From assembly GCA_021798985.1 (NCBI GenBank), contig JAJZBI010000020.1, forward strand, positions 4,785-68,784: a DNA stretch of 64,000 nucleotides, read 5' to 3'. The DNA comes from Actinomycetes bacterium (GTDB lineage: Bacteria > Actinomycetota > Acidimicrobiia > Acidimicrobiales > Bog-793). Made by a program: the position numbers and the translations under genes. The first letter of the stretch is position 1; every line of letters starts with the position of its first letter. Under the pieces are notes generated by a model. That model was not told the origin of the DNA, ran no database searches, and saw nothing but the letters and a program-made list of their open reading frames with translations. Below, piece after piece: positions 23,374 through 62,791 of this stretch.

Positions 23374-24678
23374 GTGTTCGACGTCTTGGACTGGCGCGAG
23401 CTGCTGGTCGCCGAGGCGCGCCAGCTGCAAGAGAGTGGCTACGAGCCGGCGCTCGGCGCGGACGAGCTCGACCGGCTGGTGGGCGGCGCGCTGCCCGAGT
23501 CCCCCGAGCTCGGGGCCGCGTACGCGCGCCTTGCCACGAGCCGTCGCCGCGCCGGCACGACGGAGGTCGCGCCCGAGTCGCTCGAGGACATCACGGCGCT
23601 GTCGTCGCCGCCCCCGGCAGAGCCCGTGCCGGCCGGGCGAGCCGAGGACGGGGTGCTCGCCGCCTGGCTCGGGCGGTGCGTGGGCTGCAACCTCGGCAAG
23701 CCCGTCGAGGGCTTCGGCTGGAGCCGGCAAAAGCTCCGGCGCTACCTCGAGGCGGCCGGTGCCTACCCGATCACGGACTACCTGCCCGTGCTCGATCCGA
23801 TGCCGGACGGCCTCGTCTTCAACCCCGCCTGGCGGGAGACGACGCGCGGGCACGTGCGGGCGATGGCCCGCGACGACGACCTCGACTACACCGTGATCGG
23901 CCTCGAGCTCCTCGAGCGGTACGGGCCGGGTTTTCGCACCGCGGACGTCGGCGAGCTGTGGCTGGAGCTGCTGCCGTTCTCCAAGACCTACACGGCCGAG
24001 CGCGCGGCCTACCGCAACCTCGTGCGCGGCCTCGTGCCACCGCAGACCGCCACCTTTGCCAATCCCTATCGGGAGTGGATCGGGGCGATGATCCGCGCCG
24101 ACATCTTCGGCTACGTCTGTCCCGGCGACCCGGCCGCGGCGGCCCGCCTTGCCTACCGCGACGCCACGCTGTCGCACACCGCCAACGGCGTGTACGCCGC
24201 GATGTGGGCGGCCGCCCTCGTCGCCACGGCGTTCTCTGCCACCTCGCCGCGCCAGGCGATCGAGCGGTCGCTGTCGGTGGTCCCGCCCGGCTCTCGCCTC
24301 GCCCGGGCGGTGCGCGACCAGCTCGACGCGCACGCCGAGGGGGTCGGCTTCGACGAGGCGATGGCCCGGGCCGACCAGCGCCTCGGCCACTACCACTGGA
24401 TCCACGCCATCAACAACGCCGCAGTGGTCGCCGCCGCGCTGCTGTGGGGCGAGGGCGACTTCACGCGTACCGTCGGCTATGCCGTCGAGGGCGGCCTCGA
24501 CACCGACTGCACCGGGGCGACGGCCGGCTCGGTGTGCGGCGTGCTGGTCGGCACCGCCGGGCTGCCCGCGCACCTCGTCGACCCACTCGAGGACACGCTG
24601 CACAGCGCCGTCTTTGGCTACGAACCCTCGCGCATCTCCGAGCTGGCGAGGCGCACCGTGGCGCTGCGGGCGGGCTGA
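23374..24678 (+). CDS. ADP-ribosylglycohydrolase family protein
   Basis: ARDDDLDYTVIGLELLE and VEGGLDTDCTGATAGSVCGVLVG are the two Asp-rich metal-binding blocks of the family. Confidence 0.82.
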   Translation: MFDVLDWRELLVAEARQLQESGYEPALGADELDRLVGGALPESPELGAAYARLATSRRRAGTTEVAPESLEDITALSSPPPAEPVPAGRAEDGVLAAWLGRCVGCNLGKPVEGFGWSRQKLRRYLEAAGAYPITDYLPVLDPMPDGLVFNPAWRETTRGHVRAMARDDDLDYTVIGLELLERYGPGFRTADVGELWLELLPFSKTYTAERAAYRNLVRGLVPPQTATFANPYREWIGAMIRADIFGYVCPGDPAAAARLAYRDATLSHTANGVYAAMWAAALVATAFSATSPRQAIERSLSVVPPGSRLARAVRDQLDAHAEGVGFDEAMARADQRLGHYHWIHAINNAAVVAAALLWGEGDFTRTVGYAVEGGLDTDCTGATAGSVCGVLVGTAGLPAHLVDPLEDTLHSAVFGYEPSRISELARRTVALRAG

Positions 24679-25658
24679 GGGGGGCGCTCGGGCGAAGCGT
24701 CTGGTTGCGCGGCGCCGATCAGGTACTCGGAGATGTCCCGCACGCTCAGCGTGTCCCCGGCTGCCTTGCGGAGGTTGATGAGGCACAGCGGGCACATCGT
24801 CACGCACGCCGTGCCCACTTCGCGCAGCTGGGCGACCCGCGCCGCGGCGACCTGTGCCGCCTTGTCGGCGTCGAGCGACTCGACCGGCCCGCCGCAGCAC
24901 CAGGTCCGGGCGCGGGAATGCACCGGCTCGAGGACGCGCAGCCCGGCGGCGGCCAGCAGCTCCCGGGGCGCTTCGAGCACGCCCTCGGCACGGGCAAAAA
25001 CGCACGAGTCGTGGATCACGACCTCGTTCTCGACGGCTCGAGGCGACCCGGTGGCCGCCGCGGCGAGCACCTCGAGGTACGTGCGAACCGACACGTCGTA
25101 GCCCGGCACGAGGCGGGGGTAGATGCTGCGCAGCATCGTCGTCGTGTGGGGGTCGATCGTGATGACCTCGCGCACGCCGTAGCGCTCGAAGATGCGAGCG
25201 ACGCGGCGGGCGTGGGCCGCCACGACCTCGTCAGCGCCGAGGTCGTAGGCGAGCGCCCCGGCGTACAGGTCGTCCTCGTACAGCGAGCCGAACTCGACGC
25301 CGGCGCGCTGGAGCAGCCGGGCGACGTTGGCCGGCACGGCGTCGTAGTCGCGGCGCTCCGCCGCGCTCGGCCGCGCCACGAGGCCGATCGCGTTGACAAC
25401 GCGGTTGACGCGTCGCGCCAGGCCACTCAGGCGGGCAAGCGGCGTGTCGGCGATCCTCTGTTCGAGGCGCACCACCCGTTCGATGTAGGGGATCAGCTGG
25501 TACATCGCCCCCGTGTAGAGGACGCGCGGGCCGCCGCGGGGCAGCGCGAGACCGCGCGCCCAGCCGGTGGCGGCGCGCGCCGGGATCGGCAGCACCGATC
25601 CGCGCCGCTCGAGGTTGTCCGCGAGGATGCCGACGACGTCGACGGTGGAAAGCCTCAT
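24618..25658 (-). CDS. HdrB-like CCG-domain (Fe-S) protein with a single Cys-complete CCG motif
   Basis: C-terminal half carries HDSC...TWCCGGP...TMCPLC (CCG pattern). The first ~200 aa contain no cysteine. ATGA overlap with the hdrC-like gene. Confidence 0.8.
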   Translation of the reverse strand: MRLSTVDVVGILADNLERRGSVLPIPARAATGWARGLALPRGGPRVLYTGAMYQLIPYIERVVRLEQRIADTPLARLSGLARRVNRVVNAIGLVARPSAAERRDYDAVPANVARLLQRAGVEFGSLYEDDLYAGALAYDLGADEVVAAHARRVARIFERYGVREVITIDPHTTTMLRSIYPRLVPGYDVSVRTYLEVLAAAATGSPRAVENEVVIHDSCVFARAEGVLEAPRELLAAAGLRVLEPVHSRARTWCCGGPVESLDADKAAQVAAARVAQLREVGTACVTMCPLCLINLRKAAGDTLSVRDISEYLIGAAQPDASPERPPQPARSATVRLASSEMREGS

Positions 25659-25957
25659 CGCGCCTCTTTCCTGAGCAGGTAGCGCCGCAGGAGCCGGATG
25701 TCCTCGCTGATGTGCACTCCGGCGGGACAGGCGCTCTCGCACGCCCGGCACAACAGGCACGAGAAGATCGCCTCCGCCTCCGCGAGGAGGTGGTCCTCGA
25801 GGCCGAGCGCGGCGTCCCGCAGCACGCGCCGCGGCAGGACGTCGATGCCGAGCGGGCAGGTTGCCGTGCAGGTGCCACAGCTCATGCAGACCTCGGGATC
25901 AAAGGGCCCGAGGGTGCGCAGCGCGTCGGCGACCTGTGGCGACACGGTGGCCGTCAT
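25655..25957 (-). CDS. HdrC-like 2x[4Fe-4S] ferredoxin-type subunit
   Basis: CMSCGTCTATCP and CLLCRACESACP (two CxxCxxCxxxCP motifs) in 100 aa. ATGA overlaps on both sides. Confidence 0.82.
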   Translation of the reverse strand: MTATVSPQVADALRTLGPFDPEVCMSCGTCTATCPLGIDVLPRRVLRDAALGLEDHLLAEAEAIFSCLLCRACESACPAGVHISEDIRLLRRYLLRKEAR

Positions 25958-26181
25958 CGCTTTGCCACCGCGTAGGAGAAGTAGCCCTCTGGGGTTGGCT
26001 CGCCGACCGTCACGTCGCCGTACTTGCGCATGCCCATCACCCAGATCACGACCTCGTCGGCCGGGTGCCCCGAGGCCGCAGCGAGCTCAGGCACGGTGAG
26101 CGGTCCCGCCTCGAGGAGCTGGAGCAGCCGGCGACGAACCAGCGGCTCGTCGCGCACGACCTCGCGTACCTCCCGGGTCAT
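25954..26181 (-). CDS. small (75 aa) winged-helix-like protein embedded in the hdr-like operon
   Basis: RRRLLQLLEAGPLTVPELAAASGHPADEVVIWVMGMRKYG looks like an ArsR/MarR-style wHTH. ATGA overlaps at 26181/26178 and 25957/25954. Confidence 0.6.
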   Translation of the reverse strand: MTREVREVVRDEPLVRRRLLQLLEAGPLTVPELAAASGHPADEVVIWVMGMRKYGDVTVGEPTPEGYFSYAVAKR

Positions 26182-27899
26182 GGCGCCACCTCCCCGGCCA
26201 TCGCCGTGATCATCGCCCGCAGCTGAACGTCCCGGTATCCCTGGAGATCGATCGCGTCTTCCGGGCAGACCGGCACGCAGGCGCCGCATCCCTTGCACGC
26301 CGAGGCGTCTACCCGGGCGCGCGGCGACGCGCCATCGAGAAGCGCGATCGCTGCAAAGGGGCAGGCGGAGACGCACTCCCCACAGCCGCTGCACGCCTCG
26401 GCGCGCACGATTGCGACCTCCGGGTCGAGCTCGGCGACGCCGCGTTTCAGCACGGCGGCGGCATGCGCCGCGGCCGCGAGCCCCGAGGTGACCGCCTCGG
26501 CGGCGGTCTTTGGTCCCTGGCACGCGCCGCAGATGCTCACGCCGTCGACGATCGTCTCGACGGGCCGGAGCTTGGGGTGGATCTCGTTGAAGAAGCCGTC
26601 CCGGCCGACCGGCAGCTTCAGGGTGTTCACGAGCTCATCGTTCGACCGCGGGCGCATGCCCGTCACGAGCACGAGCAGGTCCACCGAAAGGGCGAGCTCC
26701 TCGCCGGCCGCCAACTGGTCGCGCACGATGACGCGCACCTGTTCGCCCTCGGCGCTGATCCGGGGCGCGTCGTCGTCGCCAAAGCGCAGGTAGAGCGAGC
26801 CGAGACGCCGAGACTCGCGAAAGGCGAGCTCGTTGCGCCCATAGGTGCGGAGGTCGCGATGCAGGTGGAACTGGCGCAGCGACGGCTGGCGCCGCGCCGC
26901 GAGGATCGAGGCGTGCACCGCCGCGCTGCAGCAATAGCGAGAGCACGCCGGATTCTCCTCGTTGCGGCTGCCGACGCAGTACAGGTAGGCGACCGAGGAG
27001 ACCTCGCGCCCGCCGGCGCGCAGCGGGCCGCTGCTCTTGGCGAGAAGGCGGTCGAACTCCTCGAGGGTCACGACCCCGGGCATCCCGTAGCCGTACTCGC
27101 CGAGCTCGGGGGTATAGCTCACAAAGCCCGTGGCGACGATGATCTGGCCGACGGCGACGCGAGACACCTTGCCAGCTGTCTCGACCGCGACCTCGTAGTT
27201 GCCGTAGGTGCCCCGCTTTTCGCGCAGGACCGAGCGCGTGCGCACCGTGATGGCCTCGCGCTGTTCGATCTCGGCGATGAGGCGAGCGGCGAGTTCGTCG
27301 CCGCGCACCTGGTTCGGGAACATCTCCCCGAGGCCCGCCACGGCGCCGCCGAGGTGATCCTCCCGCTCGACCAGGACGACCTCGATGCCCACGTCGGCCA
27401 GCGCGACGGCGCTGCGCATGCCGGCGACGCCGCCGCCCACCACGAGGGCGCGACGCGTCGTCGTCACGTTGAGCGGCTCGAGCGGCGCCGAGAGGCGGGT
27501 CTTCGCGATGCCGGCCCGGACGAGGCGGATCGCCTTCTCCGTTGCCCCCGCGCGGTCGTCGGTGTGAGTCCACGAGCACTGCTCGCGGATGTTCACCTGG
27601 CTGTAGAGGTACGGGTTCAGTCCGCCGCGGCGAGCGACCTCCCGGAAGGTCGTCTGGTGCAGCTTGGGCGAGCAAGAGGCGACGACGAGGCCATCGAGCT
27701 CTTCGGCGGCGATGTCCTCGACGATTTCGCGCTGGGTGGCTTCCGAGCACGTGAACATCGCCTCGCGGGCAACGACCACGTCGTCCTCTTCTCGCACCGC
27801 CTCGACGACGCGGCCGACATCGACGTAGTCAGAGATGTTCCCGCCGCAGTGGCAGACGTAGACGCCGATGCGGCGCCGGCGGGGCTGAGGGGCGGTCAT
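26178..27899 (-). CDS. HdrA-like FAD/Fe-S flavoprotein (HdrA/QmoB type) with C-terminal 2x[4Fe-4S] domain
   Basis: IGVYVCHCGGNISDYVDV, dinucleotide fold VVGGGVAGMRSAVALAD, YLYCVGSRNEENPACSRYCCSAA, C-terminal CSGCGECVSACP and CKGCGACVPVCP. ATGA overlap with the upstream gene. Confidence 0.85.
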   Translation of the reverse strand: MTAPQPRRRRIGVYVCHCGGNISDYVDVGRVVEAVREEDDVVVAREAMFTCSEATQREIVEDIAAEELDGLVVASCSPKLHQTTFREVARRGGLNPYLYSQVNIREQCSWTHTDDRAGATEKAIRLVRAGIAKTRLSAPLEPLNVTTTRRALVVGGGVAGMRSAVALADVGIEVVLVEREDHLGGAVAGLGEMFPNQVRGDELAARLIAEIEQREAITVRTRSVLREKRGTYGNYEVAVETAGKVSRVAVGQIIVATGFVSYTPELGEYGYGMPGVVTLEEFDRLLAKSSGPLRAGGREVSSVAYLYCVGSRNEENPACSRYCCSAAVHASILAARRQPSLRQFHLHRDLRTYGRNELAFRESRRLGSLYLRFGDDDAPRISAEGEQVRVIVRDQLAAGEELALSVDLLVLVTGMRPRSNDELVNTLKLPVGRDGFFNEIHPKLRPVETIVDGVSICGACQGPKTAAEAVTSGLAAAAHAAAVLKRGVAELDPEVAIVRAEACSGCGECVSACPFAAIALLDGASPRARVDASACKGCGACVPVCPEDAIDLQGYRDVQLRAMITAMAGEVAP

Positions 27900-30586
27900 G
27901 CCGGCACCCTCGTGGACTGAAGGTAGGCCGCCGCCTGCACGGCGGCCGCCCCGGCATGCAGGATCGACTCGGGGATGTCGCGCGGGCCGGTGACCGCTCC
28001 GGCGGCAAAGACGCCGGGAATGCTCGTCGCCGCGGGGTGATCGTCCTCGCTGACCTCGAGCACGAAGCCCTGTGGGTCGAGCTCGAGGCCGTCCTCGAAG
28101 AGCCGGGCGATGCCGGGGCTCGGCTGCACGCCGACCGCCAGCACCACGAGGTCGTACTCGGCCACTCGCACGCCGCCGTGCGCGATGTCCTCGTAGGAGA
28201 GCATGAGGTCGCCGTTCTCGAGCTCGTTGATCTCGGCGACGCGCCCTTTGATGAAGGTCGTCCCCATCGCCTTGGCCTGCTCGAAGAACTCGTCGTAGCC
28301 CTTTCCTGCCGCCCGGATGTCGATGTAGTGGACGGTGACATCGGCGAGGGGGAGCGCGCCGAGGATCAGCTGGTTCTGCTTGAGCGAGTACATACAGCAG
28401 AACTTCGAGCACATCGGGTTGTTGACCGTCTCGTCTCGAGAGCCCGTGCACATGACGTAGGCGATCTTCTCGGGGACCTTGCCGTCGCCTGGGCGCAGGA
28501 CCCCGTGATAGGGGCGTGTTGGTGCCAGCAAGCGCTCCATCTGGGTCCCGGTGACGACGTTCTTGAATCGCCCGTAGCCGTACTGCGGCTTGAGGTCCGC
28601 GTCGAAGAGGCGGTAGCCGGTGGACACGATCACGGCCCCGGCGCGCACCGTGTGGTCCTCGGGGCGCATCTCGAGATGGATGGCGTCCGCCGGGCAGGCG
28701 GCGACGCACTCGTGGCACTCCGAGCAGACCCCGCAGTCCAAACAGCGTCCGGCCGCAGCGAGCGCCTCGTCCTCGCTGAGCGGTCCCTCGAGCTCCGCGA
28801 ATCCCCGAGGTGCGGGCGAGAGTACCGGCCGGTGGACGAACGCCTCGCGGCGCGTATAGGCGCGCTGGCGGGCGAGCACCGCGTCGTGGGAGACGACCGG
28901 TAGCGGCACCTCGAGGCCGGCGAGATCCTTTCCCGAGAGGTAGCGGTCGATCATGTGGGCGGCGTCGCGTCCGGCGCCGACCGCCTGGGCGATCGTGGAG
29001 GGCCCGCTGACCGCATCGCCGGCGGCGAAGACTCCCTCCTCGGCGGTGCGAAACGTCGCCGGGTCGGCCCGAAGGCGCCGAGACCCCGCCGGGGCGAGGG
29101 AGGGGAAGGCCGCGGTGTCGACCTCCATGCCGATCGCGACGAGCACGACGTCGGCGCCGAGCTCGGCGCGCCGGCGATCGTCGTAGGTGGGAGCGAAGCG
29201 GCCGTCGGCGTCGAAGACGGCCGTGCAGGCCTTCAGCCCGACGGACGCCACGGCGTCGCTCCCGGACAGGTCGGCGATGCCCCAGCCGTCATGGAGCTCG
29301 ATCCCTTCGGCGAGCGCCTCTTCGACCTCGAAGGCGTGCGCCGGCATGTGCTCGCGCTGCTCGAGGCAGACGAGGTGCACCGAGCGGGCGCCGAGGCGTG
29401 CGGCGCTGCGCGCCGCGTCGATCGCCACGTTGCCGCCGCCGATCACGGCGACGGTGCGATCGGTGAGGTCCACTGGCGCACCGAGCTTGAGGTCACGCAG
29501 CAGCCCGAGGGCGCTGCGCACCCCGTCGAGGTCCTCTCCCGCCACGCCGAGCCGTGCGGCAAGGGGCGTGCCGGTCGCCACGAGCACGGCGTCGAAGCCG
29601 CCCGCCCGCAGCTCGGCGAGGTCGCGCACCAAATGCCCGGTCTCGATCTCGACGCCGAGCTCGGCGAGGTTGGCGAGGTCGCGCTCGACCGTCGCCACCG
29701 GCAGGCGGTAGGAGGGGATCGAGAGGCGCATGGCGCCGCCGGCGACGGGCGCGGCCTCGAAGATGCGGACCGCGTGCCCGGCGCGCGCGAGCTGCCAGGC
29801 GGCGGTCACCCCCGCCGGCCCCGATCCCACGATCGCCACCCGCTTGCCGCTCGGTTCGGGACGGGCGGGCGCTTCGTGGTTACCGTCGGACCCATAGTGC
29901 ACATCGGCGACGAACCGCTTGAGGCGCCGAATGGCGAGCGGGCCCTCGAGCGCTCCTCGGGTGCAGGCCGCCTCGCAGGGCGCGTAGCAGGCCCGCCCGA
30001 GGCTCCCGACGAGCGGCGTCGTCTCCGAGACGAGCGCGAACGCCTTGTCGTACTCGCCGCTACGCACGAGCGACACGTAGCCGTGCGCTTTGATCCCCGC
30101 AGGGCACGCAAAGGTGCACGGGGAGGTGCCGGCCCGCTCGATGAGCGCCTTTTGCGGCAGCGCCTGGGGGAAGGGCAGGTAGGCGGCGCGGCGCGACACC
30201 AGCTCGCCGTTGTACTGGTCCGGCACCGCCACGGTGCAGGCGAGCTCGCACTGGCGGCACGCCGTGCACGCCGCCACGTCGACATAGCGCGGCGTCTGGT
30301 GGATCGTGGCGCTGAAGCCGCCGTCGGTCATACGCACGACCCGCTCGAGACGGGCGTCGGTCAGCACGCTCACGTTGGGATGGTGGGCGGTGGCCGCCAT
30401 CTTGGGCGTCGAGATGCAGCTCGCGCAGTCAAGGGTGGGGAAGACCTTGCTCAACAGGATCATCTTCCCGCCGATGCTCGGCTCGGACTCGACGACGAGG
30501 ACCCGGTAGCCCATGTCGCCGAGCTTGAGCGCGGACTCCATGCCGCCGATGCCGCTGCCGAGGACGAGGACGTCGTAGTCCGTCAC
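27896..30586 (-). CDS. HdrA-like flavoprotein with an inserted GltD/NfnB-type NAD(P)H oxidoreductase module
   Basis: N-terminus DYDVLVLGSGIGGMESAL..VFPTLDCASCI (HdrA). Then PCTFACPAGIKAHGYVSL..KRVAIVGSGPAGVTAAWQLARAG..VAVIGGGNVAIDAARSA..VFAAGDAVSG (GltD/NfnB-like). Then CLDCGVCSECHECVAACP and YVMCTGSRDETVNNPMCSKFCCMYS (HdrA C-terminal part). GTG 30586 follows GAGGAG. Confidence 0.85.
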   Translation of the reverse strand: MTDYDVLVLGSGIGGMESALKLGDMGYRVLVVESEPSIGGKMILLSKVFPTLDCASCISTPKMAATAHHPNVSVLTDARLERVVRMTDGGFSATIHQTPRYVDVAACTACRQCELACTVAVPDQYNGELVSRRAAYLPFPQALPQKALIERAGTSPCTFACPAGIKAHGYVSLVRSGEYDKAFALVSETTPLVGSLGRACYAPCEAACTRGALEGPLAIRRLKRFVADVHYGSDGNHEAPARPEPSGKRVAIVGSGPAGVTAAWQLARAGHAVRIFEAAPVAGGAMRLSIPSYRLPVATVERDLANLAELGVEIETGHLVRDLAELRAGGFDAVLVATGTPLAARLGVAGEDLDGVRSALGLLRDLKLGAPVDLTDRTVAVIGGGNVAIDAARSAARLGARSVHLVCLEQREHMPAHAFEVEEALAEGIELHDGWGIADLSGSDAVASVGLKACTAVFDADGRFAPTYDDRRRAELGADVVLVAIGMEVDTAAFPSLAPAGSRRLRADPATFRTAEEGVFAAGDAVSGPSTIAQAVGAGRDAAHMIDRYLSGKDLAGLEVPLPVVSHDAVLARQRAYTRREAFVHRPVLSPAPRGFAELEGPLSEDEALAAAGRCLDCGVCSECHECVAACPADAIHLEMRPEDHTVRAGAVIVSTGYRLFDADLKPQYGYGRFKNVVTGTQMERLLAPTRPYHGVLRPGDGKVPEKIAYVMCTGSRDETVNNPMCSKFCCMYSLKQNQLILGALPLADVTVHYIDIRAAGKGYDEFFEQAKAMGTTFIKGRVAEINELENGDLMLSYEDIAHGGVRVAEYDLVVLAVGVQPSPGIARLFEDGLELDPQGFVLEVSEDDHPAATSIPGVFAAGAVTGPRDIPESILHAGAAAVQAAAYLQSTRVPA

Positions 30587-31023
30587 GATCCGAGCTCCTC
30601 GAGCGAGTCGCAAAAGGCGCGCACCTGGCGCGCAAAGGGCTCGGCGCACACCGAGCAGATCGCCGTCATCTTGAGGCGTCTCCCGTCGATCCCCTCGGTT
30701 GCGAGCAGCTCCTGCGCCGTTGCGACCAGGCGCGCCGAGCGCGCCGAGCAGTCGGCGAGGTAGCCGCACTCGTCGCCGTCGGCGGCGATGAAGACCCCGT
30801 CGAAGCCTTCGCGCAGCGCGTGCAGGATCCAGGCCGGCTTGATGCCGCTCGTGCAGGGAACGCTCAGCACCACGACGCCCGGGTCGTAGTGCAAATGCGA
30901 GCTCCCGGCGAGGTCGATCCCGGGATCGGAGATGAGGTTCGTCGAGAACACCAGCACGCGCGGCGCGCCTGGGCGAGCGAGCAGTTGCGGGGCGCGCAGC
31001 GGCGTCGCGCTGGACGTGCTCAC
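30583..31023 (-). CDS. MvhD/FlpD-like (methyl-viologen-reducing hydrogenase delta subunit family) protein
   Basis: DLAGSSHLHYDPGVVVLSVPCTSGIKPAWILHALREGFDGVFIAADGDECGY..RRLKM follows the FlpD domain pattern. GTGA overlaps at both ends. Confidence 0.75.
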   Translation of the reverse strand: MSTSSATPLRAPQLLARPGAPRVLVFSTNLISDPGIDLAGSSHLHYDPGVVVLSVPCTSGIKPAWILHALREGFDGVFIAADGDECGYLADCSARSARLVATAQELLATEGIDGRRLKMTAICSVCAEPFARQVRAFCDSLEELGS

Positions 31024-31286
31024 TTGGCCCGGCGGATGAAGACGCGGTCGTAGCCCTGCGCCGCGACGACGCCGAGGAAGCCGTGCCCCACCTTGTTGGC
31101 CCACGCCGCGACGTCGGTCTTGGTCTGCGGGTCGCTCGACCACAGCTCGAGCACGGCGCCGATCTCGATGCCACCCATGGCCTTCTTCGCCTCGAGTAGC
31201 GGTCCCGGGCAGGCCGCGCCGCGGGCGTCGACGACCGTCGAGGCCTCGAAGGCCTCGGCATCGCTCTCGTTCAGCATGCTGGTCAT
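31020..31286 (-). CDS. TusA-family sulfur carrier protein
   Basis: VDARGAACPGPLLEAKKA (D-x-RG-x-x-CP-x-P motif), 88 aa. GAGAGGAG RBS before ATG 31286. Confidence 0.85.
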   Translation of the reverse strand: MTSMLNESDAEAFEASTVVDARGAACPGPLLEAKKAMGGIEIGAVLELWSSDPQTKTDVAAWANKVGHGFLGVVAAQGYDRVFIRRAK

Positions 31287-31310
31287 TGCGAACTCCTCTC
31301 TGGCGGGTGC

Positions 31311-31679
31311 TCAGTACACGAGGCTGGCGGTGGCCGAGGTCACCTCGGCGACAAAGCGCGCCCCGGCGACGATCTCGGCGCCGTCGACGAGGTCCTCTTG
31401 GGTGAGGCCTCTGGACTTGAGGCACGGCGAGCAGACGAGCAGCTTGCCGCCGAGCTCCTGGACGGTCTTTAACAAGACATGCATGGGTGTGAACTCGGGA
31501 ACGGCGATCTGCTCGGCGACGCCCTTCTTCATGAGCTCACACCCCGCGGCTTGGAAGCCCATCACGACCTCGACGTCTGAGGCGACGGCGGCGCCGGCCA
31601 TCACGAAGGGAATCGTGGCGAGCTCAGGCTCCTCAGGGCCATGGGTCACCATGATCACGAGCTTCTCGGTCTCTGCCAT
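31311..31679 (-). CDS. DsrE/DsrF-family protein (DsrE3-like)
   Basis: KLVIMVTHGPEEPELATIPFVMAGAA ... LLVCSPCLKSRG, 122 aa, typical DsrE-fold length and Cys placement. Confidence 0.78.
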   Translation of the reverse strand: MAETEKLVIMVTHGPEEPELATIPFVMAGAAVASDVEVVMGFQAAGCELMKKGVAEQIAVPEFTPMHVLLKTVQELGGKLLVCSPCLKSRGLTQEDLVDGAEIVAGARFVAEVTSATASLVY

Positions 31680-31680
31680 C

Positions 31681-31932
31681 TCAGGCCTCCTTGCCTTTGC
31701 GGATCAAAAAGACGAAGGTCTCGCCCTCGCGGTGTTGCGCGACGAGCTCGTTGCCGGTCGTCTGTGTCCACGCCGGCACGTCGGCGAGCGAGCCGCGGTC
31801 GGTGGTGGTGAGCCTGAGGACCTGGCCCGGCGCGAGGCCGCGCACGGCGGCCGCGGTCTTGATGATCGGCATCGGGCACAGCAGCCCGCGCGCGTCGAGC
31901 TCCAGGTCTGCCTGCGGTGGCGCGTCAGTCAT
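31681..31932 (-). CDS. TusA-family sulfur carrier protein
   Basis: LDARGLLCPMPIIKTAAA motif, 83 aa. Its stop lies 1 nt from the dsrE3-like start. Confidence 0.85.
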   Translation of the reverse strand: MTDAPPQADLELDARGLLCPMPIIKTAAAVRGLAPGQVLRLTTTDRGSLADVPAWTQTTGNELVAQHREGETFVFLIRKGKEA

Positions 31933-31951
31933 CTGCTCGCTCTTTCTCTCT

Positions 31952-32581
31952 CTAGACGAACAAGGTCACGTGCGCTGCCCGCGCCTCGGCGAGGAAGGCC
32001 GCCGCACCGGCGAACTCCACCCCGTTGATGAAGTCATCGGTCTGGTAGCCAAAGACGTCCATCGTCATCTGGCAGGCGATGAGGCGGACCTCGAGGTCGC
32101 GCGCGGCCTCGAGGAGCTCGCCGATCTCGGGCACGTGCTTGCTGGCAAACTTCGTGCGCATGAGGCGCGTCGACATCGGGCCCATCCCGGGGAGGCCGAG
32201 GAGGAAGTTCGGCATCGGCACCGGCATTGGCATCGCCGGGTTGCCGAGCGGAGAGACCTTGAGGAGGCGGGCGAAGTCCTTGTGGATGATGTTCAGCCCG
32301 TAGAAGGTGAAGAAGACCGAGGTGGCCATGCCCGAGGCGGCCGCCGTCGTAGCCAAGATGAGCGGGGGGTAGGCCCAGTCGAGGGTGCCCTTGGAGGCGA
32401 TGATCGCCGCCGAGCTCGTGCCCCGATCCGCCAGCGCCAGCTCGCCGAGCTCGGAGCGGACGATCCTTCTGATGTCCGCTTCGCTCAGCGCGCCGTCTCG
32501 CCGTGGCCCACCGTCTCGTTTCAGTGCATCGAGCGCTCGCGCAGGTGCCGCTTGGCGCGCTCTGGCCGCAGCCGTCGTCAT
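31952..32581 (-). CDS. DsrE2-like (DsrE/DsrF/DsrH-like family) protein
   Basis: AAIIASKGTLDWAYPPLILATTAAASGMATSVFFTFYGLNII ... RLIACQMTMDVFG resembles the DsrE2 family. ATG 32581; an alternative GTG 32596 follows GGAGG. Confidence 0.75.
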   Translation of the reverse strand: MTTAAARARQAAPARALDALKRDGGPRRDGALSEADIRRIVRSELGELALADRGTSSAAIIASKGTLDWAYPPLILATTAAASGMATSVFFTFYGLNIIHKDFARLLKVSPLGNPAMPMPVPMPNFLLGLPGMGPMSTRLMRTKFASKHVPEIGELLEAARDLEVRLIACQMTMDVFGYQTDDFINGVEFAGAAAFLAEARAAHVTLFV

Positions 32582-32663
32582 GGGACGCTCGCTCACGTCG
32601 CCTCCGTCCCTCGCAGGTCCGTGAGCAAGCTTCCGTCGCGATCGAGGGGTGCTGTAGATGGCG

Positions 32664-32687
32664 AAGGTCACCGGGGCCGGTGACCTT
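32664..32687. promoter_or_regulatory. 24-bp palindrome AAGGTCACCGG-GG-CCGGTGACCTT upstream of the dsrE2-like gene (candidate operator)
   Basis: Perfect 11-bp inverted arms with a 2-nt spacer, which is too tight for a hairpin. Lies 83 to 106 nt upstream of the first gene of the sulfur-relay/hdr-like operon. Confidence 0.4.
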
Positions 32688-32765
32688 GGTTGGATACCCG
32701 CCCCGGTGTCTCGCGACGCGCCGTCGGCGAGCGCGACGCACCATCGCGTCCAGCTGGCGACGCGC

Positions 32766-32803
32766 CACCGCCCCGCCGCTGCGTCGGCAGGGGCGGGGCG
32801 GTG
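32766..32803 (-). terminator. GC-rich hairpin downstream of the cupredoxin genes
   Basis: 12-bp perfect stem CACCGCCCCGCC / GGCGGGGCGGTG with a 14-nt loop, 15 nt after the stop at 32818. No U-tract. Confidence 0.4.
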
Positions 32804-32817
32804 GCGCGAGGGTTCGA

Positions 32818-33816
32818 CTACTTGATGGTGACGGTGCCCTTCATGTAGCCGCTCGCGTCCATCGGGCCGTGCTCGCTGTTCTTGCCCGTGCCGCAGGGGG
32901 CGTAGCACTGCCAGCTGTAGGTCCCGGCCTTGCCCGTGTGGATCGTCGCTTGCACCACGATGACCTTGCCGGTGGGGGCGGCGGGGATCGGCAGGTTGAT
33001 GCCGAGCTGGGGGATGGTGAAGGTGTGGGAGATCACCTTGTTGCTGACGTCGCTCAGCGTCTTGCCGCCGGCCTTCTCCTTGCCGCCGACGGTGCCCATG
33101 ACTTTGTCGTAGAAGATGACGTTCTTCGGCAGCGGGGCAGCGCCGTCGTCGTGGGAGTCGATCGTGAGGACCACGGTCGAGTTCTTCGGCAGCACGATGT
33201 CCTTGCTGTTGACGTACTCGGGCCAGCCCTTGCGTCCGCTCGACTGGATGACGAGCGTCTTGTGGACGACGGCGCTGGCGTGCTTTGCGGCCGGAACCCT
33301 GGCGGCACCGGCGGGAGCGGCGAGCGCCGCGGTGCCGCCGGCGACGGCGAGGGCGCCGGTCAGTCCGGTGGCGATCGTCTTGGCGGCGGTGCTCTTGGTC
33401 AACATGTTGGAGGATTCCTTTCTGGTGGTGGAGCTCTGGGCGTTGCGAGGAGCGTTGGCGCTCGAGGACAGCGCCGTGGTGGTCGCGGCGATCGGCACGG
33501 CGGCGGCGCTTGCCGCCCCCGCCGGCCCAGCGGTGAGCCAGGCGTTCTCGTCGGAGATGTTGCTGACGACCCCGACGCCGAGCACGGCGACGAGGCTGGT
33601 GACGCCGGCTGCGACGACCCAGGACGTCCAGGCAATCCGCTGCTTGTTCGCCGCAGCGATGCGGCGCTGCTCGCGCCAGGAGAGCACCCGGGCGCCGAGG
33701 TGGTCGAGCGCCATCAAGAACGAGTAGCCGGCGCCCGCGGCGACCTCGATCTGGCGAGTCGTGTCGAAGACGGCGCGCCCGCGGCCGGGGTGGCGCAAGG
33801 CAGGGAAGGTGCTCAT
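32818..33816 (-). CDS. membrane-anchored CuA-like cupredoxin domain protein (paralogue 2)
   Basis: C-terminal domain SHTFTIPQLGINLPIP ... WQCYAPCGTGKNSEHGPMDASGYMKG. TM segment TSWVVAAGVTSLVAVLGVGVV. ATG 33816 overlaps the upstream stop (ATGA). An in-frame internal ATG at 33405 (MLTKSTAAKTIATGLTGALAVAGG) after AAGGA could give a shorter signal-peptide form. Confidence 0.75.
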   Translation of the reverse strand: MSTFPALRHPGRGRAVFDTTRQIEVAAGAGYSFLMALDHLGARVLSWREQRRIAAANKQRIAWTSWVVAAGVTSLVAVLGVGVVSNISDENAWLTAGPAGAASAAAVPIAATTTALSSSANAPRNAQSSTTRKESSNMLTKSTAAKTIATGLTGALAVAGGTAALAAPAGAARVPAAKHASAVVHKTLVIQSSGRKGWPEYVNSKDIVLPKNSTVVLTIDSHDDGAAPLPKNVIFYDKVMGTVGGKEKAGGKTLSDVSNKVISHTFTIPQLGINLPIPAAPTGKVIVVQATIHTGKAGTYSWQCYAPCGTGKNSEHGPMDASGYMKGTVTIK

Positions 33817-34337
33817 GCCGTCACCTTGATCGAACCCATCATGTAGCCGGCGTGTGCCATGACCCAGCTGCCGCAGGGAACCTCGCACTGCCAGCTGGCG
33901 AGACCCGCCTGCTTCGGGTCGATCGTGAAGTGCACGGTCGCCGGGCCCGGCGGGACCGTCTCATTGACGCCGAGCGAGGGCACCGTGAAGGTGTGGGGCA
34001 TGGGCGTTTTGTTGACGATCGTGACCGTCGTCGGCGACCCGGCCGTCACGGTGCCGAGCACCGCCGCGCCGACGCCGTTGCTGCCGACGTAGGCGGGCTG
34101 CTGGCCCTCGGGGGTCTTGACGTTCTCGATGCTGACCGTGAGCGACGTGCCGCCCGCAGGCGAGGCGGCCGCAGGCGACGCGGCGGTCGTCGCGCTCGCC
34201 GGGTTCGTCGCGTGCCAGACGGCACCGACGCCCGCTGCCACACCGATCACCGCCGCTGCGCTGAGGGCGACCCCGCCAAGGAGGCTGCTCAGACCGATCA
34301 TGACTCGCCGTGGCGACGGTGCCTGGGTGGTGTCCAC
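33813..34337 (-). CDS. membrane-anchored CuA-like cupredoxin domain protein (paralogue 1)
   Basis: GTG 34337 lies 8 nt after AAGGAGG. N-terminal anchor VMIGLSSLLGGVALSAAAVIGVAAGV. PHTFTVPSLGVNETVP ... WQCEVPCGSWVMAHAGYMMG (H...C-x3-C-G...H...M pattern). Confidence 0.8.
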   Translation of the reverse strand: MDTTQAPSPRRVMIGLSSLLGGVALSAAAVIGVAAGVGAVWHATNPASATTAASPAAASPAGGTSLTVSIENVKTPEGQQPAYVGSNGVGAAVLGTVTAGSPTTVTIVNKTPMPHTFTVPSLGVNETVPPGPATVHFTIDPKQAGLASWQCEVPCGSWVMAHAGYMMGSIKVTA

Positions 34338-34686: not shown

Positions 34687-35682
34687 ATGTCGACCGCCGT
34701 GACGGCAGGACCGCAGATCCTGCGGGTGCCGCGCCGATTGCTCCAGTGCCAGGCGCCACGGCGCCAGGGCGCCGTGGCCGCGTGCTCGCTCCGAGCGCGC
34801 CGCATCCAGCTGGCGCTCGGGATCTTGTGGCTCCTCGACGGCGTGTTGCAGCTGCAGCCGTCGATGTTCTCCCGCACCTTTGTCACCACGGTGCTGCTCC
34901 CGAGTGCCGCGGGCAGCCCGGGTTTTGTCGCCGGCCCGATCAGCGAGGCCGCCCGGCTGCTCGCGCCGCGGATCGTCGTCTTCAACGCCCTGTTCGCCGC
35001 CGTCCAGCTCGGCATTGGCGTCGCGCTCGTGCTCGGGCGCCAGGTGCGCGCCGCGCTCGCCGCCTCGGTGGCCTGGTCGCTCGGGGTGTGGTGGCTCGGC
35101 GAGGGCCTCGGCGGCCTGCTCGGCGGCGCGGCCTCGCCGATCAGCGGCGCGCCGGGAGCCGTGCTGCTGTACGGGATCGCCGCCCTGCTCGCCTGGCCCC
35201 CTGGCCAGTCCGCGCCGGCCGATCGGGTCGGCGTGTTCTCCGCTCGGGCGGCACGTTCGCTGGTCGCCCTCGTCTGGGTGCTCGGCGCGGCCCTCTTGGC
35301 CCAGCCGGCCAACCTCGCCGCGCATGGCTTGTCCTCACAGCTGCTCGCCGGCGCGGCCGGCGAGCCGGCGTGGCTCGCCTCCCCGATCCGGGACCTCGCG
35401 CGCCTGCTCGGTGGTGGCGGCACGGCGGCGACCTTCGCGGTGATGGTTACGATGCTCGCCGTGGCGATCGGTCTTGCGACCGGGCGATTCCTCGGGGCGG
35501 TGATCCCGCTCGCCATCGCCCTCGCGCTCGCGATCTGGTGGTTCGGCCAGGCCTTCGGCGGTATCGCCACCGGCTCGGCGACCGACCCCAACTCGGCCCC
35601 GTTGTTGATCCTGCTCACCCTCTCGGTCAGTGGCGCTGCCAGCCAGCGCCCGCCGGCCCGCGAGCTCGCGGGTGCGCAATGA
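34687..35682 (+). CDS. polytopic integral membrane protein of unknown function
   Basis: ATG 34687 after GAGGAGG. About 8 hydrophobic segments (ALGILWLLDGVLQLQP, VFNALFAAVQLGIGVALVLG, VAWSLGVWWLGEGLGG ...). ATGA overlap with the response-regulator gene. Confidence 0.75.
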   Translation: MSTAVTAGPQILRVPRRLLQCQAPRRQGAVAACSLRARRIQLALGILWLLDGVLQLQPSMFSRTFVTTVLLPSAAGSPGFVAGPISEAARLLAPRIVVFNALFAAVQLGIGVALVLGRQVRAALAASVAWSLGVWWLGEGLGGLLGGAASPISGAPGAVLLYGIAALLAWPPGQSAPADRVGVFSARAARSLVALVWVLGAALLAQPANLAAHGLSSQLLAGAAGEPAWLASPIRDLARLLGGGGTAATFAVMVTMLAVAIGLATGRFLGAVIPLAIALALAIWWFGQAFGGIATGSATDPNSAPLLILLTLSVSGAASQRPPARELAGAQ

Positions 35683-36578
35683 GCGCGCCGCTGACCCGCT
35701 TGGGTCCCTCGGCCGTGCCCTGTGACGTGGCCGAAGACGAGCCACCGGTCGAAGTGCCGGGGGGGACTTCGGACGAGGACAAAGAGGCCTTTTGGCATCG
35801 GCGGCCGATCGGCACCTTCCCCCACACTGGCGAGGTGCCGACACTGACCAACGAGCCAACTGCCCAGCCAGCGGCCCTGCCAGGGGAAACGCTACGCGCC
35901 GGCCAGCGGGCCATCACCGTGGCCATCGTCGACGACCATGCGCTGTTTCGCGAGGGCACCGTCTATGTCCTCGAAGGCGAGGAGGGCGTCGAGGTCGTCG
36001 GCGAGGCAGGCACCGGCGAGGACGCGCTCGAACTCCTCGAGCGGCTGCGCCCGGACGTCGCGATCGTGGACATCAACCTGCCGGGGATGAGCGGCTTGCA
36101 GGTCGCGCGCACCCTCGCCGATGCCGGCTCGCCGGTGCGGGTCCTCATCGTGAGCGCCTACGACGACTATGCCTACGTGACCGAGGCGCTCGAGGTCGGG
36201 GTCGCCGGCTACCTGCTGAAGACCGCGTCCGGCCGGGAGCTCGTCGACGCCGTGCGCGCCGTGGCCGACGGGGTGTTCGTCTTGGACCGGGCCGTCTCCT
36301 CTCGCCTGGCGCGCCGCAATCGCGTCGGCGCGGCAACCAGCAGCGACCAGCTGACTCCTCGGGAAGTCGACGTGCTCGCCCTGCTGGCCCAAGGGCTCTC
36401 GAACAAGCAGATCGCCCAGCGCCTCGTCCTCGGACTGCGCACCGTCGAGAGCCACGTGTCGAATGTGCTCGCCAAACTGGGCGTGACCTCGAGGACCGAG
36501 GCCGTGCTCTACGCGCTTGAGCACCATCTCGTGACCGGGGGGACGGACCGTGGCGCGGACCCACGCAACTCGCGCTGA
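35679..36578 (+). CDS. LuxR/NarL-family response regulator with ~75-aa N-terminal extension
   Basis: Receiver domain VAIVDDHALFREG..DVAIVDINLPGMSG..VLIVSAYDD. C-terminal HTH LTPREVDVLALLAQGLSNKQIAQRLVLGLRTVESHVSNVLAKLG. Confidence 0.9.
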   Translation: MSAPLTRLGPSAVPCDVAEDEPPVEVPGGTSDEDKEAFWHRRPIGTFPHTGEVPTLTNEPTAQPAALPGETLRAGQRAITVAIVDDHALFREGTVYVLEGEEGVEVVGEAGTGEDALELLERLRPDVAIVDINLPGMSGLQVARTLADAGSPVRVLIVSAYDDYAYVTEALEVGVAGYLLKTASGRELVDAVRAVADGVFVLDRAVSSRLARRNRVGAATSSDQLTPREVDVLALLAQGLSNKQIAQRLVLGLRTVESHVSNVLAKLGVTSRTEAVLYALEHHLVTGGTDRGADPRNSR

Positions 36579-52993: not shown

Positions 52994-53032
52994 GGAGACC
53001 GAGCGACTCGGTCCTGACCGCGAGGGGATGAC

Positions 53033-58660: not shown

Positions 58661-58667
58661 GGGGCGC

Positions 58668-59873: not shown

Positions 59874-59897
59874 CGCGTTCCCCCGCGGCGCGGCACT

Positions 59898-61328: not shown

Positions 61329-61608
61329 CGTCGGCGCCGCCCGTCGAGGCGGAGGTCTCCAGGCGGTCGCCGTCGCAAAGCGGCCGCAGGCAGGCGCGCA
61401 CGGCGCGCTCGCCGTTGACGTCGATCAGGCAGTCAAAGCAGGTACCGATCCCGCAGAAGACGCCGCGGGCCTGTCCGGCGACGCGGGTGCGCCGCCAAGA
61501 TGCGATGCCGTTGCGCACCAGCGCGCCGGCCAGCGTCGAGCCCACCGGCGCCTCGAGGGGCCGGCCGTCGAAGCTGAAGCGCAGCGCGCTCGCGGGCTCT
61601 TTGCTCAT
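61321..61608 (-). CDS. small (2Fe-2S)-binding subunit, HcnA/SoxA-N-like (candidate gamma subunit)
   Basis: FSFDGRPLEAPVGSTLAGALVRNGI...GVFCGIGTCFDCLIDVNGERAVRAC. Confidence 0.8.
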   Translation of the reverse strand: MSKEPASALRFSFDGRPLEAPVGSTLAGALVRNGIASWRRTRVAGQARGVFCGIGTCFDCLIDVNGERAVRACLRPLCDGDRLETSASTGGADDV

Positions 61609-62783: not shown

Positions 62784-62791
62784 GGCCGGGA

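Follow-up and report, generated by a model that had tools for sequence, protein, structure and literature searches.

The window analysed here is a stretch of 64,000 nucleotides from contig JAJZBI010000020.1 of an Actinomycetes bacterium (assembly GCA_021798985.1), with a G+C content of about 72%; one of its proteins is identical to an NCBI entry from a metagenome-assembled genome of Actinomycetota. Our subject is an operon at 24618-32596 on its minus strand, made of ten tightly packed genes which we identified from open reading frame (ORF) translations with Pfam and NCBIfam. The operon is predicted to encode an HdrA-family iron-sulfur flavoprotein, soluble and built of several subunits, along with a sulfur-carrier relay of its own, and it probably represents an unstudied sulfur redox enzyme.

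Operon layout

All ten genes are read from the minus strand, and the first four encode sulfur carriers: a DsrE2-like protein (31952-32596; PF13686, DrsE_2, 2.3e-48), a first TusA of 83 amino acids with the CPxP cysteine motif (31681-31932; PF01206, 1.7e-22), a DsrE3-like protein of 122 amino acids (31311-31679; PF02635, 3.7e-14) and a second TusA of 88 amino acids (31020-31286; PF01206, 1.6e-18). They are followed by an MvhD/FlpD-like [2Fe-2S] connector (146 amino acids, 30583-31023; PF02662, 3.5e-27), an HdrL-type subunit that combines an HdrA flavin adenine dinucleotide (FAD) domain with an inserted NfnB/GltD module (896 amino acids, 27896-30586) and a second HdrA (573 amino acids, 26178-27899). 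The last three genes encode a winged-helix protein of 75 amino acids (25954-26181), an HdrC-like 2x[4Fe-4S] protein (100 amino acids, 25655-25957; Fer4_17, 3e-10) and an HdrB-like CCG protein with a single PF02754 match at 2e-13 (346 amino acids, 24618-25658).

The original prediction had listed these genes in this order, and Pfam, NCBIfam and the public gene calls on the identical sequence agree with it. Six junctions are 4-nucleotide overlaps of start and stop codons (two GTGA and four ATGA), as it had also described, and the remaining three gaps measure 19, 1 and 24 nucleotides. The tight packing therefore stands, but the extent of the operon needs one correction. The dsrE2 start had been placed at ATG 32581, giving 209 amino acids, and GTG 32596, which has GGAGG 4 nucleotides upstream and gives 214 amino acids, seems more likely; this start, five codons earlier, is also the only point at which the public calls differ from the predicted genes.

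Relatives of the HdrL-type protein number 240 when one genome is taken per species. We examined the best 80 loci by tblastn with all ten window proteins, and 63 of these are complete on the downstream side. Such an arrangement greatly exceeds what chance would produce; the same order recurs in dozens of genomes of different phyla.

The window version of the complex had been thought soluble, and a hydropathy scan agrees, finding no transmembrane segment in the DsrE2, HdrC-like or HdrB-like proteins. It had also been claimed that the window holds no LbpA/GcvH-like or lipoate gene. This is borne out by the ~50 other ORFs that we scanned, where domains of GcvH/LbpA, lipoate ligase, rhodanese, YeeE, Sqr, Dsr, Apr and Sox are all missing.

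Sulfur carriers

The DsrE2, DsrE3 and TusA proteins all have the fold and the active-site cysteine of their families. Their Pfam matches exceed the Pfam cutoffs; the NCBIfam equivalog cutoffs for DsrE2 and TusA are not reached (for DsrE2, 188 bits under a cutoff of 210). The nearest solved structures are 2qs7 (DsrE2B) for DsrE2, at 1.2e-11, and 3mc3 (SSO1125, DsrE3A) for DsrE3, at 6.7e-10, each with the active cysteine aligned. Cys170 of DsrE2 is invariant (n=44 orthologs), as is Cys26 of the second TusA (n=74), and Cys83 of DsrE3 is kept in 85% of 62 orthologs. The second TusA is the core TusA: it lies immediately upstream of mvhD in all loci and is translationally coupled to it through the GTGA overlap. 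The first copy is confined to the form of the operon found in Actinomycetota and Dormibacterota. No fusion ties TusA or DsrE to a subunit of the complex among the 80 loci.

The carriers could conceivably handle selenium rather than sulfur, delivering it to a selenide-making reductase. The TusA copies do match YedF selenium-metabolism models weakly, and both HdrL and the HdrB-like protein match the NCBIfam family ‘diclust_near_Sec’ (pyridine nucleotide-disulfide oxidoreductase/dicluster-binding protein). However, all of these matches fall far below their cutoffs, the best matches of the carriers are to TusA, DsrE2 and DsrE3, and the window contains no selD, selA, yedE or other selenium gene, so we consider selenium trafficking exceedingly improbable.

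MvhD and the two HdrAs

The MvhD-like connector, with five invariant cysteines (n=74 orthologs), precedes two flavoproteins that each carry part of the HdrA architecture. Residues 1-151 and 616-890 of HdrL align to residues 143-290 and 289-566 of HdrA in structure 5odc and form a thioredoxin-reductase-like FAD domain. Residues ~154-615 align to NfnB/GltD-type proteins, so the earlier claim that an NAD(P)H module of this type is fused into HdrA is correct; the module (NAD(P)H-FAD-2x[4Fe-4S]) interrupts the inserted ferredoxin domain. HdrL is without both HdrA's N-terminal cluster domain and its C-terminal ferredoxin domain. Its Cys57 aligns with Cys197 of 5odc HdrA, and every one of its iron-sulfur ligand cysteines is invariant (n=72 orthologs).

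The second HdrA aligns to 5odc HdrA residues 4-234 and 318-650 (1.7e-109) and consists of an N-terminal Cys-cluster domain, an FAD domain and a C-terminal 2x[4Fe-4S] ferredoxin domain. It has no inserted ferredoxin domain, DCxxC motif or Cys197 equivalent, and FPNQVRGDE stands in place of FPTNDCSIC. The iron-sulfur ligand cysteines of both HdrAs are essentially invariant (n=64-72 orthologs). Both proteins match methanogen HdrA at 1e-94 to 1e-109, far more strongly than they match the sHdrA structure 6tjr of sulfur oxidisers (4e-38 and 1e-28).

In HdrA, Cys197 is the fourth ligand of the N-terminal [4Fe-4S] cluster of the partner protomer (PMC9012536). Tandem HdrAs, one with Cys197 and the other with the N-terminal domain, have been interpreted as obligate heterodimers (Chadwick et al. 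2022, PMC9012536), and ANME-1 HdrA9-11 carry an NfnB insertion of ~500 amino acids at the identical HdrA site (PMC9012536). HdrL and the second HdrA fit both descriptions. Because their complementarity in Cys197 and N-terminal domain matches that of the heterodimeric HdrAs, we conclude from the alignments that they are complementary halves which would have to pair as an obligate heterodimer, a point not made before for this operon. We also considered the invariant DCxxC motif of HdrL as a flavin-adjacent thiol/disulfide site for TusA. This idea was dropped because the second cysteine of the motif corresponds to HdrA Cys197 and therefore ligates the partner’s N-terminal [4Fe-4S] cluster.

Apparent in-frame fusions of complex subunits occur in three loci: MvhD-HdrL and HdrL-HdrA in L038, HdrL-HdrA in L023, and HdrC-HdrB in L024. 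These could be real or could be artefacts of assembly indels.

HdrC/HdrB-like module

The HdrC-like protein matches the TIGR03290 HdrC model at 1.2e-14, which is below the cutoff, and its eight cysteines are each at least 97% conserved. The HdrB-like protein departs further from its namesake. Across the family, its cysteines occur only in the C-terminal CCG motif (C219, C254, C255, C289 and C292), and its N-terminal half is Cys-free yet strongly conserved. On three measures its nearest solved relative is EtfD of Mycobacterium smegmatis (9ojn) and not HdrB: a single-sequence search (9e-10 for EtfD vs 2e-3 for HdrB), a family profile search (1.6e-16 vs 6.7e-6) and a Foldseek search with an AlphaFold2 (AF2) model. 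The model has a predicted local distance difference test (pLDDT) score of 78, and its Foldseek matches are at E 1.6e-10 and a template-modelling (TM) score of 0.63 for EtfD, vs E 3.6e-5 and TM 0.45 for HdrB.

EtfD provides a residue-level comparison. The five HdrB-like cysteines align to the ligands of the EtfD D2 cluster (C637, C672, C673, C709 and C712), and His171 (in DPHT) aligns to EtfD His583 (in CPHC); all six residues are at least 94% conserved. The D1 ligands that fall within the alignment (C538, C581 and C584) are Tyr132, Asp169 and Thr172 in the HdrB-like protein. The protein has a single noncubane-cluster motif combined with an EtfD-type histidine, which is another new point. The histidine of EtfD completes the coordination of D2, which its authors thereby call non-catalytic, and FadF and DgcB are likewise without D1 ligands (PMC13083937). 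HdrB, whose noncubane cluster acts on a disulfide-type substrate, has a bridging cysteine where EtfD has the histidine (PMC13083937).

The module can also be exchanged. Among the 63 downstream-complete loci, 54 have HdrC and the HdrB-like protein, and in the other nine a QmoC-like membrane protein replaces the pair, with TusA and DsrE retained. This replacement, too, is newly reported here. The QmoC-like subunit is ~400 amino acids long, its N-terminus is HdrC-like and its membrane domain polytopic, and it scores 180 bits against a qmoC model cutoff of 300. Because the two forms interleave in a neighbour-joining tree of the HdrL orthologs, their distribution suggests repeated exchange of HdrC/B and QmoC-like modules.

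The original prediction had the complex acting on carrier-bound persulfide or heterodisulfide sulfur. The idea that HdrB itself cleaves a persulfide on the carrier is weakened by the EtfD-type histidine and single cluster, and by the QmoC-like replacement in 9/63 loci where TusA and DsrE remain. The HdrC/HdrB-like pair may instead be an electron-transfer port and not a site of disulfide cleavage. Alternatively, the Cys-free pocket beside the one cluster that is left may form an active site of a new type.

If the pair is an electron-transfer module only, the complex could be an oxidoreductase for NAD(P)H, ferredoxin and a third partner, with a redox substrate other than sulfur, and TusA and DsrE could be accessory proteins for sensing, sulfur supply or cluster protection. 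A histidine of the EtfD type and an architecture with a single cluster, as FadF and DgcB have, would suit this, as would the swapping with QmoC-like subunits, and CCG proteins do have non-disulfide roles in several enzymes (PMC13083937). What makes a non-sulfur substrate rather unlikely is the constancy of the carriers: TusA is always the first core gene, coupled to mvhD and with an invariant active cysteine, DsrE3 or DsrE2 is present at nearly every locus, and Hdr-type complexes elsewhere do without accessory proteins of this sort.

Where the HdrB-like protein ends, its last ~25 residues run into a convergent ADP-ribosylglycohydrolase gene, with an overlap of 61 nucleotides (24618-24678). The true C-terminus may be functionally dispensable, because these residues are unconserved and are modelled with pLDDT <50.

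Winged-helix protein

The 75-residue protein has only weak winged helix-turn-helix matches in Pfam, but its AF2 model is confident (pLDDT 93.8) and consists of a three-helix bundle with a two-strand wing. It is cysteine-free and has no close structural relative, the best Foldseek match being ArsR/SmtB at an E value of merely 1.4e-3. The family comprises 403 representative clusters, almost all of them stand-alone proteins of similar size. Long matches are frameshift chimeras of the adjacent hdrA, winged-helix and hdrC genes, with the exception of P0402 (165 amino acids, from the representative library), the lone natural-looking fusion, which joins a TusA-like domain without the CPxP cysteine to the winged-helix protein. 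Because hdrA and hdrC each overlap one end of the gene, and it keeps its position between them in 71 loci, we lean towards a subunit or adaptor rather than a regulator.

Conservation in other genomes

The core order TusA-MvhD-HdrL-HdrA-winged helix-HdrC/B, all on one strand, is kept in 63/63 complete loci, which span at least ten phylum-level groups as labelled in their records. DsrE genes almost always adjoin this core, either upstream or downstream, so the genetic tie to TusA/DsrE carriers that had been drawn from one sequence is a recurring one. The exact ten-gene order occurs in 29 loci, all of them Actinomycetota or Dormibacterota, and Chloroflexota loci are without the first DsrE2-TusA pair. 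DsrE3- and/or DsrE2-like genes follow the Hdr genes in Bacillota, Acidobacteriota, Myxococcota, NC10, Gemmatimonadota, Planctomycetota, Verrucomicrobiota and Desulfobacterota, and the Bacillota carriers include the cultured Desulfofundulus thermobenzoicus (L055). Three loci from Gaiellaceae or Actinomycetes (L026, L029 and L032) have a DsrE2-like gene between mvhD and hdrL, with 36-39% identity to the window DsrE2, and no matches to the first three window genes upstream of tusA. Genes outside the core and carrier set are not conserved across loci. The operon is thus a self-contained, widely distributed module and not peculiar to one genome, which raises its importance.

We also took a census of the two nearest ORFs on each side of ~70 orthologous loci. 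The upstream ORFs include 21 ArsR-family regulators, five Crp/FNR-type, four CsoR-family, three sigma-54 activators and two Rex. In distant loci, the ArsR-family genes immediately precede tusA, in the same orientation, and encode two conserved cysteines. Such a first gene (~115-130 amino acids, with the motifs HAxLCK and xACxLI) is present in L062, L068, L071 (8937-9284), L072, L073, L074, L077 and L080, and a regulator with the same two cysteines lies on the opposite strand in L015 (353-697). CsoR-family repressor genes flank the operon in Bacillota and Desulfofundulus loci (L053, 8673-9062; L055, 1170-1514). TACCCC...GGGGTA-type palindromes, which we take to resemble CsoR/CstR operators, occur 30-220 nucleotides upstream of dsrE2 in three actinobacterial loci (L010, L016 and L025).

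These regulators raise the possibility of detoxification or homeostasis, with the operon encoding an NAD(P)H-dependent persulfide or polysulfide reductase that is induced by sulfide or persulfide stress and conserves no energy. The two-cysteine ArsR proteins are the commonest upstream neighbours, CsoR-family repressors and CsoR-operator-like palindromes occur in four and three loci, respectively, and multidomain TusA/DsrE sulfurtransferases act in sulfide-stress operons. The ArsR-type regulators are akin to NolR, HlyU, SqrR and BigR, with matches of 1e-12 and 3e-11 in an SqrR/BigR-type test. However, their first cysteine is not at the first-cysteine position of the aligned HlyU, which is presumably also that of BigR and SqrR, so their cysteines appear to be off the SqrR/BigR positions. 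Neither an ArsR nor a CsoR regulator is near the window operon, and two HdrA-type flavoproteins with MvhD far exceed the machinery of simple persulfide reductases. We therefore judge a purely protective role to be decidedly unlikely.

Other neighbours are metabolic. Eight loci have hemerythrin genes after the operon (those inspected by eye are Chloroflexota), and four have pyruvate or 2-oxoacid:ferredoxin oxidoreductases (PFOR/POR) there. A Dormibacteria locus (L003, 16560-22812) has directly downstream a GltD/NfnB-like NAD(P)-binding protein that stands alone (PRK12771, 756 bits), a pyruvate:ferredoxin oxidoreductase of 1300 amino acids and a dihydroorotate-dehydrogenase-like protein; L004 and L017 have a comparable second HdrL-related match. 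An Actinomycetota locus (L007) has a rhodanese neighbour. Upstream of the ten-gene operon in a metagenome-assembled genome of Centralia Actinomycetota (L016, 4717-7616) are a sulfide:quinone oxidoreductase (SQR)-like flavoprotein, a TusE/DsrC-like protein and an extra DsrE2-like protein, and this is the sole locus with a DsrC-family neighbour among those examined. DsrC is kin to TusE and not to TusA, contrary to what had been written of it earlier. None of ten candidate ORFs is an electron-transferring flavoprotein (ETF) neighbour, and ETF domains occur in 4 of 112 downstream flanking ORFs. Taken together, the neighbours hint at redox- or thiol-responsive control and at a link to ferredoxin metabolism, although they are not universal and none is in the window.

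Proposed function

The domain assignments outline an HdrA-type flavoprotein core with three ports: NAD(P)(H) via the NfnB module, MvhD, and the HdrC/HdrB-like pair. In the reading we favour, to which we give somewhat less than an even chance, DsrE2 and DsrE3 would pass sulfane sulfur (persulfide or thiosulfonate) to TusA, and the complex would carry electrons between NAD(P)H and the TusA-bound sulfur. The direction would most likely be reductive, with sulfide released and NAD(P)+ regenerated. A low-potential partner such as ferredoxin might act at the third port, in which case the HdrL/HdrA flavin could bifurcate. The sulfur chemistry of the soluble form would most plausibly take place at the HdrB-like noncubane cluster beside the Cys-free pocket, and this is the weakest step of the proposal.

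Several observations favour this sulfur-reducing scheme. The domain and cofactor assignments, the fit to the heterodimeric HdrAs with the NfnB insertion, and the constant gene order with adjoining DsrE genes all speak for it. In HdrB and DsrK relatives, a noncubane cluster works on disulfide or trisulfide substrates (PMC13083937 for HdrB). The iron-sulfur ligands are almost completely conserved in 44-74 orthologs, as are the active cysteines of TusA and DsrE2. The genes are translationally coupled, and MvhD-HdrL, HdrL-HdrA and HdrC-HdrB are occasionally fused. The ArsR, Crp/FNR, Rex, CsoR, PFOR/POR, SQR-like, TusE/DsrC-like and rhodanese neighbours fit a function that is connected to ferredoxin and controlled by redox state or anaerobiosis.

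Other observations weigh on the opposite side. The HdrB-like protein is nearer EtfD than HdrB and bears the histidine that the EtfD paper links to a non-catalytic cluster. The sulfur chemistry may not sit on HdrB at all, because QmoC-like subunits replace HdrC/B in 9/63 loci, interleaved with the other form, while TusA and DsrE3 stay. Neither TusA nor DsrE is predicted to bind a redox cofactor. A partner enzyme for the MvhD port is not encoded, and the flanks of the ~70 loci contain no generally conserved partner enzyme. Furthermore, the inserted ferredoxin domain is the low-potential exit of methanogen HdrA (PMC9012536), so NAD(P) might be the acceptor and not the donor. Direction, nucleotide specificity and bifurcation are all things that we infer.

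A rival scheme runs the other way. Sulfane sulfur or sulfide delivered by DsrE/TusA would be a mid-potential electron donor to the HdrL/HdrA flavin, which would send one branch downhill through the HdrC/HdrB-like or QmoC-like module to quinone or another high-potential acceptor and the other uphill to NAD(P)+ by way of the inserted ferredoxin domain and the NfnB module, making NAD(P)H without reverse electron transport. It suits the placing of the NfnB module on what in methanogen HdrA forms the low-potential exit branch, the interchange of HdrC/B with a quinone-type QmoC-like subunit, the resemblance of the HdrB-like protein to EtfD (which feeds menaquinone), the SQR-like, TusE/DsrC-like and rhodanese genes that adjoin some loci, and the many hosts from usually aerobic soil lineages. 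However, there is no identifiable catalytic site for sulfur oxidation, the lipoate carrier that sHdr needs is absent from the window and the flanks scanned, and the window version is without a membrane or quinone-binding subunit. GltD/NfnB-type modules are usually an NAD(P)H input, and the Rex and Crp/FNR neighbours suggest a role in NADH reoxidation. Oxidative bifurcation is therefore a fairly unlikely explanation in our view, and the reductive scheme remains the one we prefer.

Surroundings of the operon

The region at 32597-32817 is likely the promoter/operator of the operon. A GC-rich hairpin (CGCGCCACCGCCCCGCC...GGCGGGGCGGTGGCGCG, ~32758-32812 in minus-strand reading) lies directly after the upstream gene and is followed by ~170 nucleotides of non-coding DNA before dsrE2. 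Within this DNA, ~100 nucleotides ahead of dsrE2, is a perfect palindrome with 11-bp arms (AAGGTCACCGG-CC-CCGGTGACCTT, ~32663-32687). We rejected the palindrome as a conserved operator, as it is not kept in 30 orthologous loci. The region upstream of dsrE2 contains no match to the sigma-70 consensus.

Further upstream on the same strand are two paralogous genes for membrane-anchored cupredoxin-like proteins (32818-33816 and 33813-34337, both minus strand). Each is a single-pass membrane protein with a C-terminal cupredoxin-like domain, and the two have in common a C-terminal motif (W-Q-C-x2-P-C-G...H...G-Y-M-x-G) that looks like a CuA-type or blue-copper site. We excluded this pair from the system because it is found in no related locus and the hairpin separates it from the operon. 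Beyond it, a divergent three-gene unit (34687-38010, plus strand) encodes a polytopic membrane protein of 331 amino acids with no Pfam match, along with a response regulator of the NarL/GerE type and a histidine kinase of the PAS-HisKA_3 type. The unit may locally regulate either the cupredoxin genes or the operon.

The remainder of the window has other content. At 51839-64000, a branched-chain-type ABC transporter is followed by a putative catabolic cluster for hydroxyproline or proline derivatives, with two proline-racemase-family proteins, an ornithine cyclodeaminase-like protein, a DAO-type oxidase, a PucR-type regulator and a Pyr_redox_2 protein that also carries BFD and sarcosine-oxidase A3 domains. 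A secreted protein of 1525 amino acids (1856-6433, plus strand) is apparently a large protease of the sedolisin type; it contains TIG/IPT repeats, a pro-kumamolisin activation domain and a fibronectin type III domain. The gene at 14770-16263 (minus strand) encodes a CYTH-CHAD protein (a triphosphate tunnel metalloenzyme domain with a polyphosphate-associated CHAD domain).

Significance

HdrA complexes are the best-studied flavin-based bifurcating machines, and most bacterial versions, including the HdrL types known from sulfate reducers and ANME archaea, have no assigned substrate. This question becomes tractable here: candidate substrates (TusA, DsrE3 and DsrE2) come with the operon itself, the system is soluble and compact, and at least one carrier, Desulfofundulus thermobenzoicus, has been cultured. 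It may even represent a widespread, unrecognised class of flavin-based electron-bifurcating enzyme in which carrier-bound sulfane sulfur is one of three redox partners, an idea that we regard as speculative and on the unlikely side. If it were true, one example would be the bifurcation of electrons from TusA-bound sulfur to NAD(P)+ via the NfnB module and to a high-potential acceptor (quinone) via the EtfD-like HdrC/B or QmoC-like module, by which soil Actinomycetota, Dormibacterota and Chloroflexota could draw NAD(P)H directly from reduced sulfur. In reverse, the enzyme would be an NAD(P)H-dependent sulfur reductase which conserves energy and yields reduced ferredoxin as well.

Among the carriers of the operon are abundant peat and soil lineages (Thermoleophilia, Acidimicrobiia, Dormibacterota and Chloroflexota) that are not normally regarded as metabolising sulfur, so a real sulfur redox function would change how metagenomes are read for cryptic sulfur cycling in soil and peat. 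In addition, the single-cluster, histidine-bearing HdrB-like protein and its exchange with QmoC-like subunits bear on when CCG-domain proteins catalyse and when they serve as wires.

Comparison with known systems

The layout had been described as fitting none of the sHdr, Flx-Hdr and Qmo systems, and we agree, as the defining features of each are missing. The operon resembles sHdr-LbpA in encoding an Hdr-like complex with TusA, DsrE2 and DsrE3 (PMC11094781) and in having a small uncharacterised gene between hdrA and hdrC (PMC11094781, PMC6067878). However, sHdrA is a short (~350 amino acids) homodimeric protein (6tjr), only distantly related to the HdrAs of the operon, which have 896 and 573 amino acids and are far nearer methanogen HdrA. 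The sHdr system also has two HdrC/HdrB pairs (or an HdrB3 fusion with EtfAB-EMO) and requires LbpA (GcvH-like) and lipoate-maturation genes, whereas the operon has one pair and no etfAB or emo, and no LbpA or lipoate-maturation gene is among the ~60 window ORFs. Conversely, sHdr is without MvhD and an NAD(P)H module, and the operon has both.

FlxABCD-HdrABC is similar in its nicotinamide-nucleotide input, its MvhD-like connector (FlxD; here PF02662, 3.5e-27) and its use of HdrABC on a protein-bound sulfur carrier. The operon differs in having no FlxABC subunits, its nucleotide module being the GltD/NfnB-type insertion in HdrL, in having one CCG motif family-wide where canonical HdrB has two, and in its carriers, which are TusA and DsrE and not DsrC. 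QmoABC and QmoAB-HdrCB are analogous to it in architecture, with two distinct HdrA-like flavoproteins and an MvhD-type element, and membrane QmoC alternates with soluble HdrCB as QmoC-like subunits do in nine orthologous loci (PMC10504309). In the operon, however, MvhD is a separate protein, one HdrA carries the NfnB module, and Qmo’s aprBA/sat linkage is missing, with no Apr or Sat domain in the window or in the common flanking families.

The operon could still be a divergent member of one of these three systems whose LbpA, FlxABC or AprAB is encoded elsewhere in the genome, of which 64 kb is visible. The TusA/DsrE genes that accompany sHdr (PMC11094781) and the likeness of two HdrA paralogues with HdrCB to QmoAB-HdrCB (PMC10504309, PMC6397845) speak for this. 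It is nevertheless very improbable: the HdrAs match methanogen HdrA at 1e-94 to 1e-109 and sHdrA 6tjr only at 1e-28 to 1e-38, there is one C/B pair and not two, and LbpA, lipoate, Apr and Flx genes are absent from the window and from the common flanking families of ~70 loci (two nearest ORFs per side).

Two further systems are related through single modules. Methanogenic HdrABC has an HdrB with two noncubane clusters on either side of the heterodisulfide site, whereas the operon has a split HdrA and a single noncubane cluster, the ligands of the other being replaced (Y132, D169 and T172). EtfD, FadF and DgcB share the D2 ligands (five cysteines and one histidine) but have a membrane haem b domain and an ETF donor; in the operon the module is attached to an HdrA core, has no transmembrane segment in either protein and is accompanied by no ETF genes.

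The core parts are, however, already known as uncharacterised sets, so the flavoprotein core is not unprecedented as the original prediction implied: HdrL/MvhD/HdrABC in sulfate reducers (PMC2702500, PMC5947623), and HdrA-NfnB and heterodimeric HdrAs in ANME archaea (PMC9012536). In literature searches directed at this gene combination we found no published description of the TusA/DsrE-linked form, of the whole operon as a unit, or of the winged-helix gene, the EtfD-like HdrB or the QmoC-like alternative, although an earlier mention may exist. An HdrA/GltD fusion, named HdrL, lies beside mvhD and hdrABC in Desulfobacterium autotrophicum (locus VIII; PMC2702500), and an HdrL-type set was detected in Syntrophobacter fumaroxidans (Sfum_0819-0824; PMC5947623). 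Judged from these descriptions, they are like the operon in adjoining such a fusion to mvhD and hdrABC, in being predicted to be soluble and NAD(P)H-linked, and in being biochemically uncharacterised. They differ in that neither paper mentions TusA, DsrE or a small winged-helix gene, and the HdrB-like protein of the operon has a single cluster motif. The Sfum cluster also has another gene order, an extra FdhB-like iron-sulfur protein and DsrC as its proposed substrate.

The ANME HdrAs provide a close parallel to the paired flavoproteins, since they show both the complementarity of N-terminal domain and Cys197 and the NfnB insertion inside the inserted ferredoxin domain (PMC9012536). The operon differs in being bacterial, in combining both features in one pair, and in being tied to TusA/DsrE where the ANME proteins are tied to FdhAB or to coenzyme M/coenzyme B metabolism.

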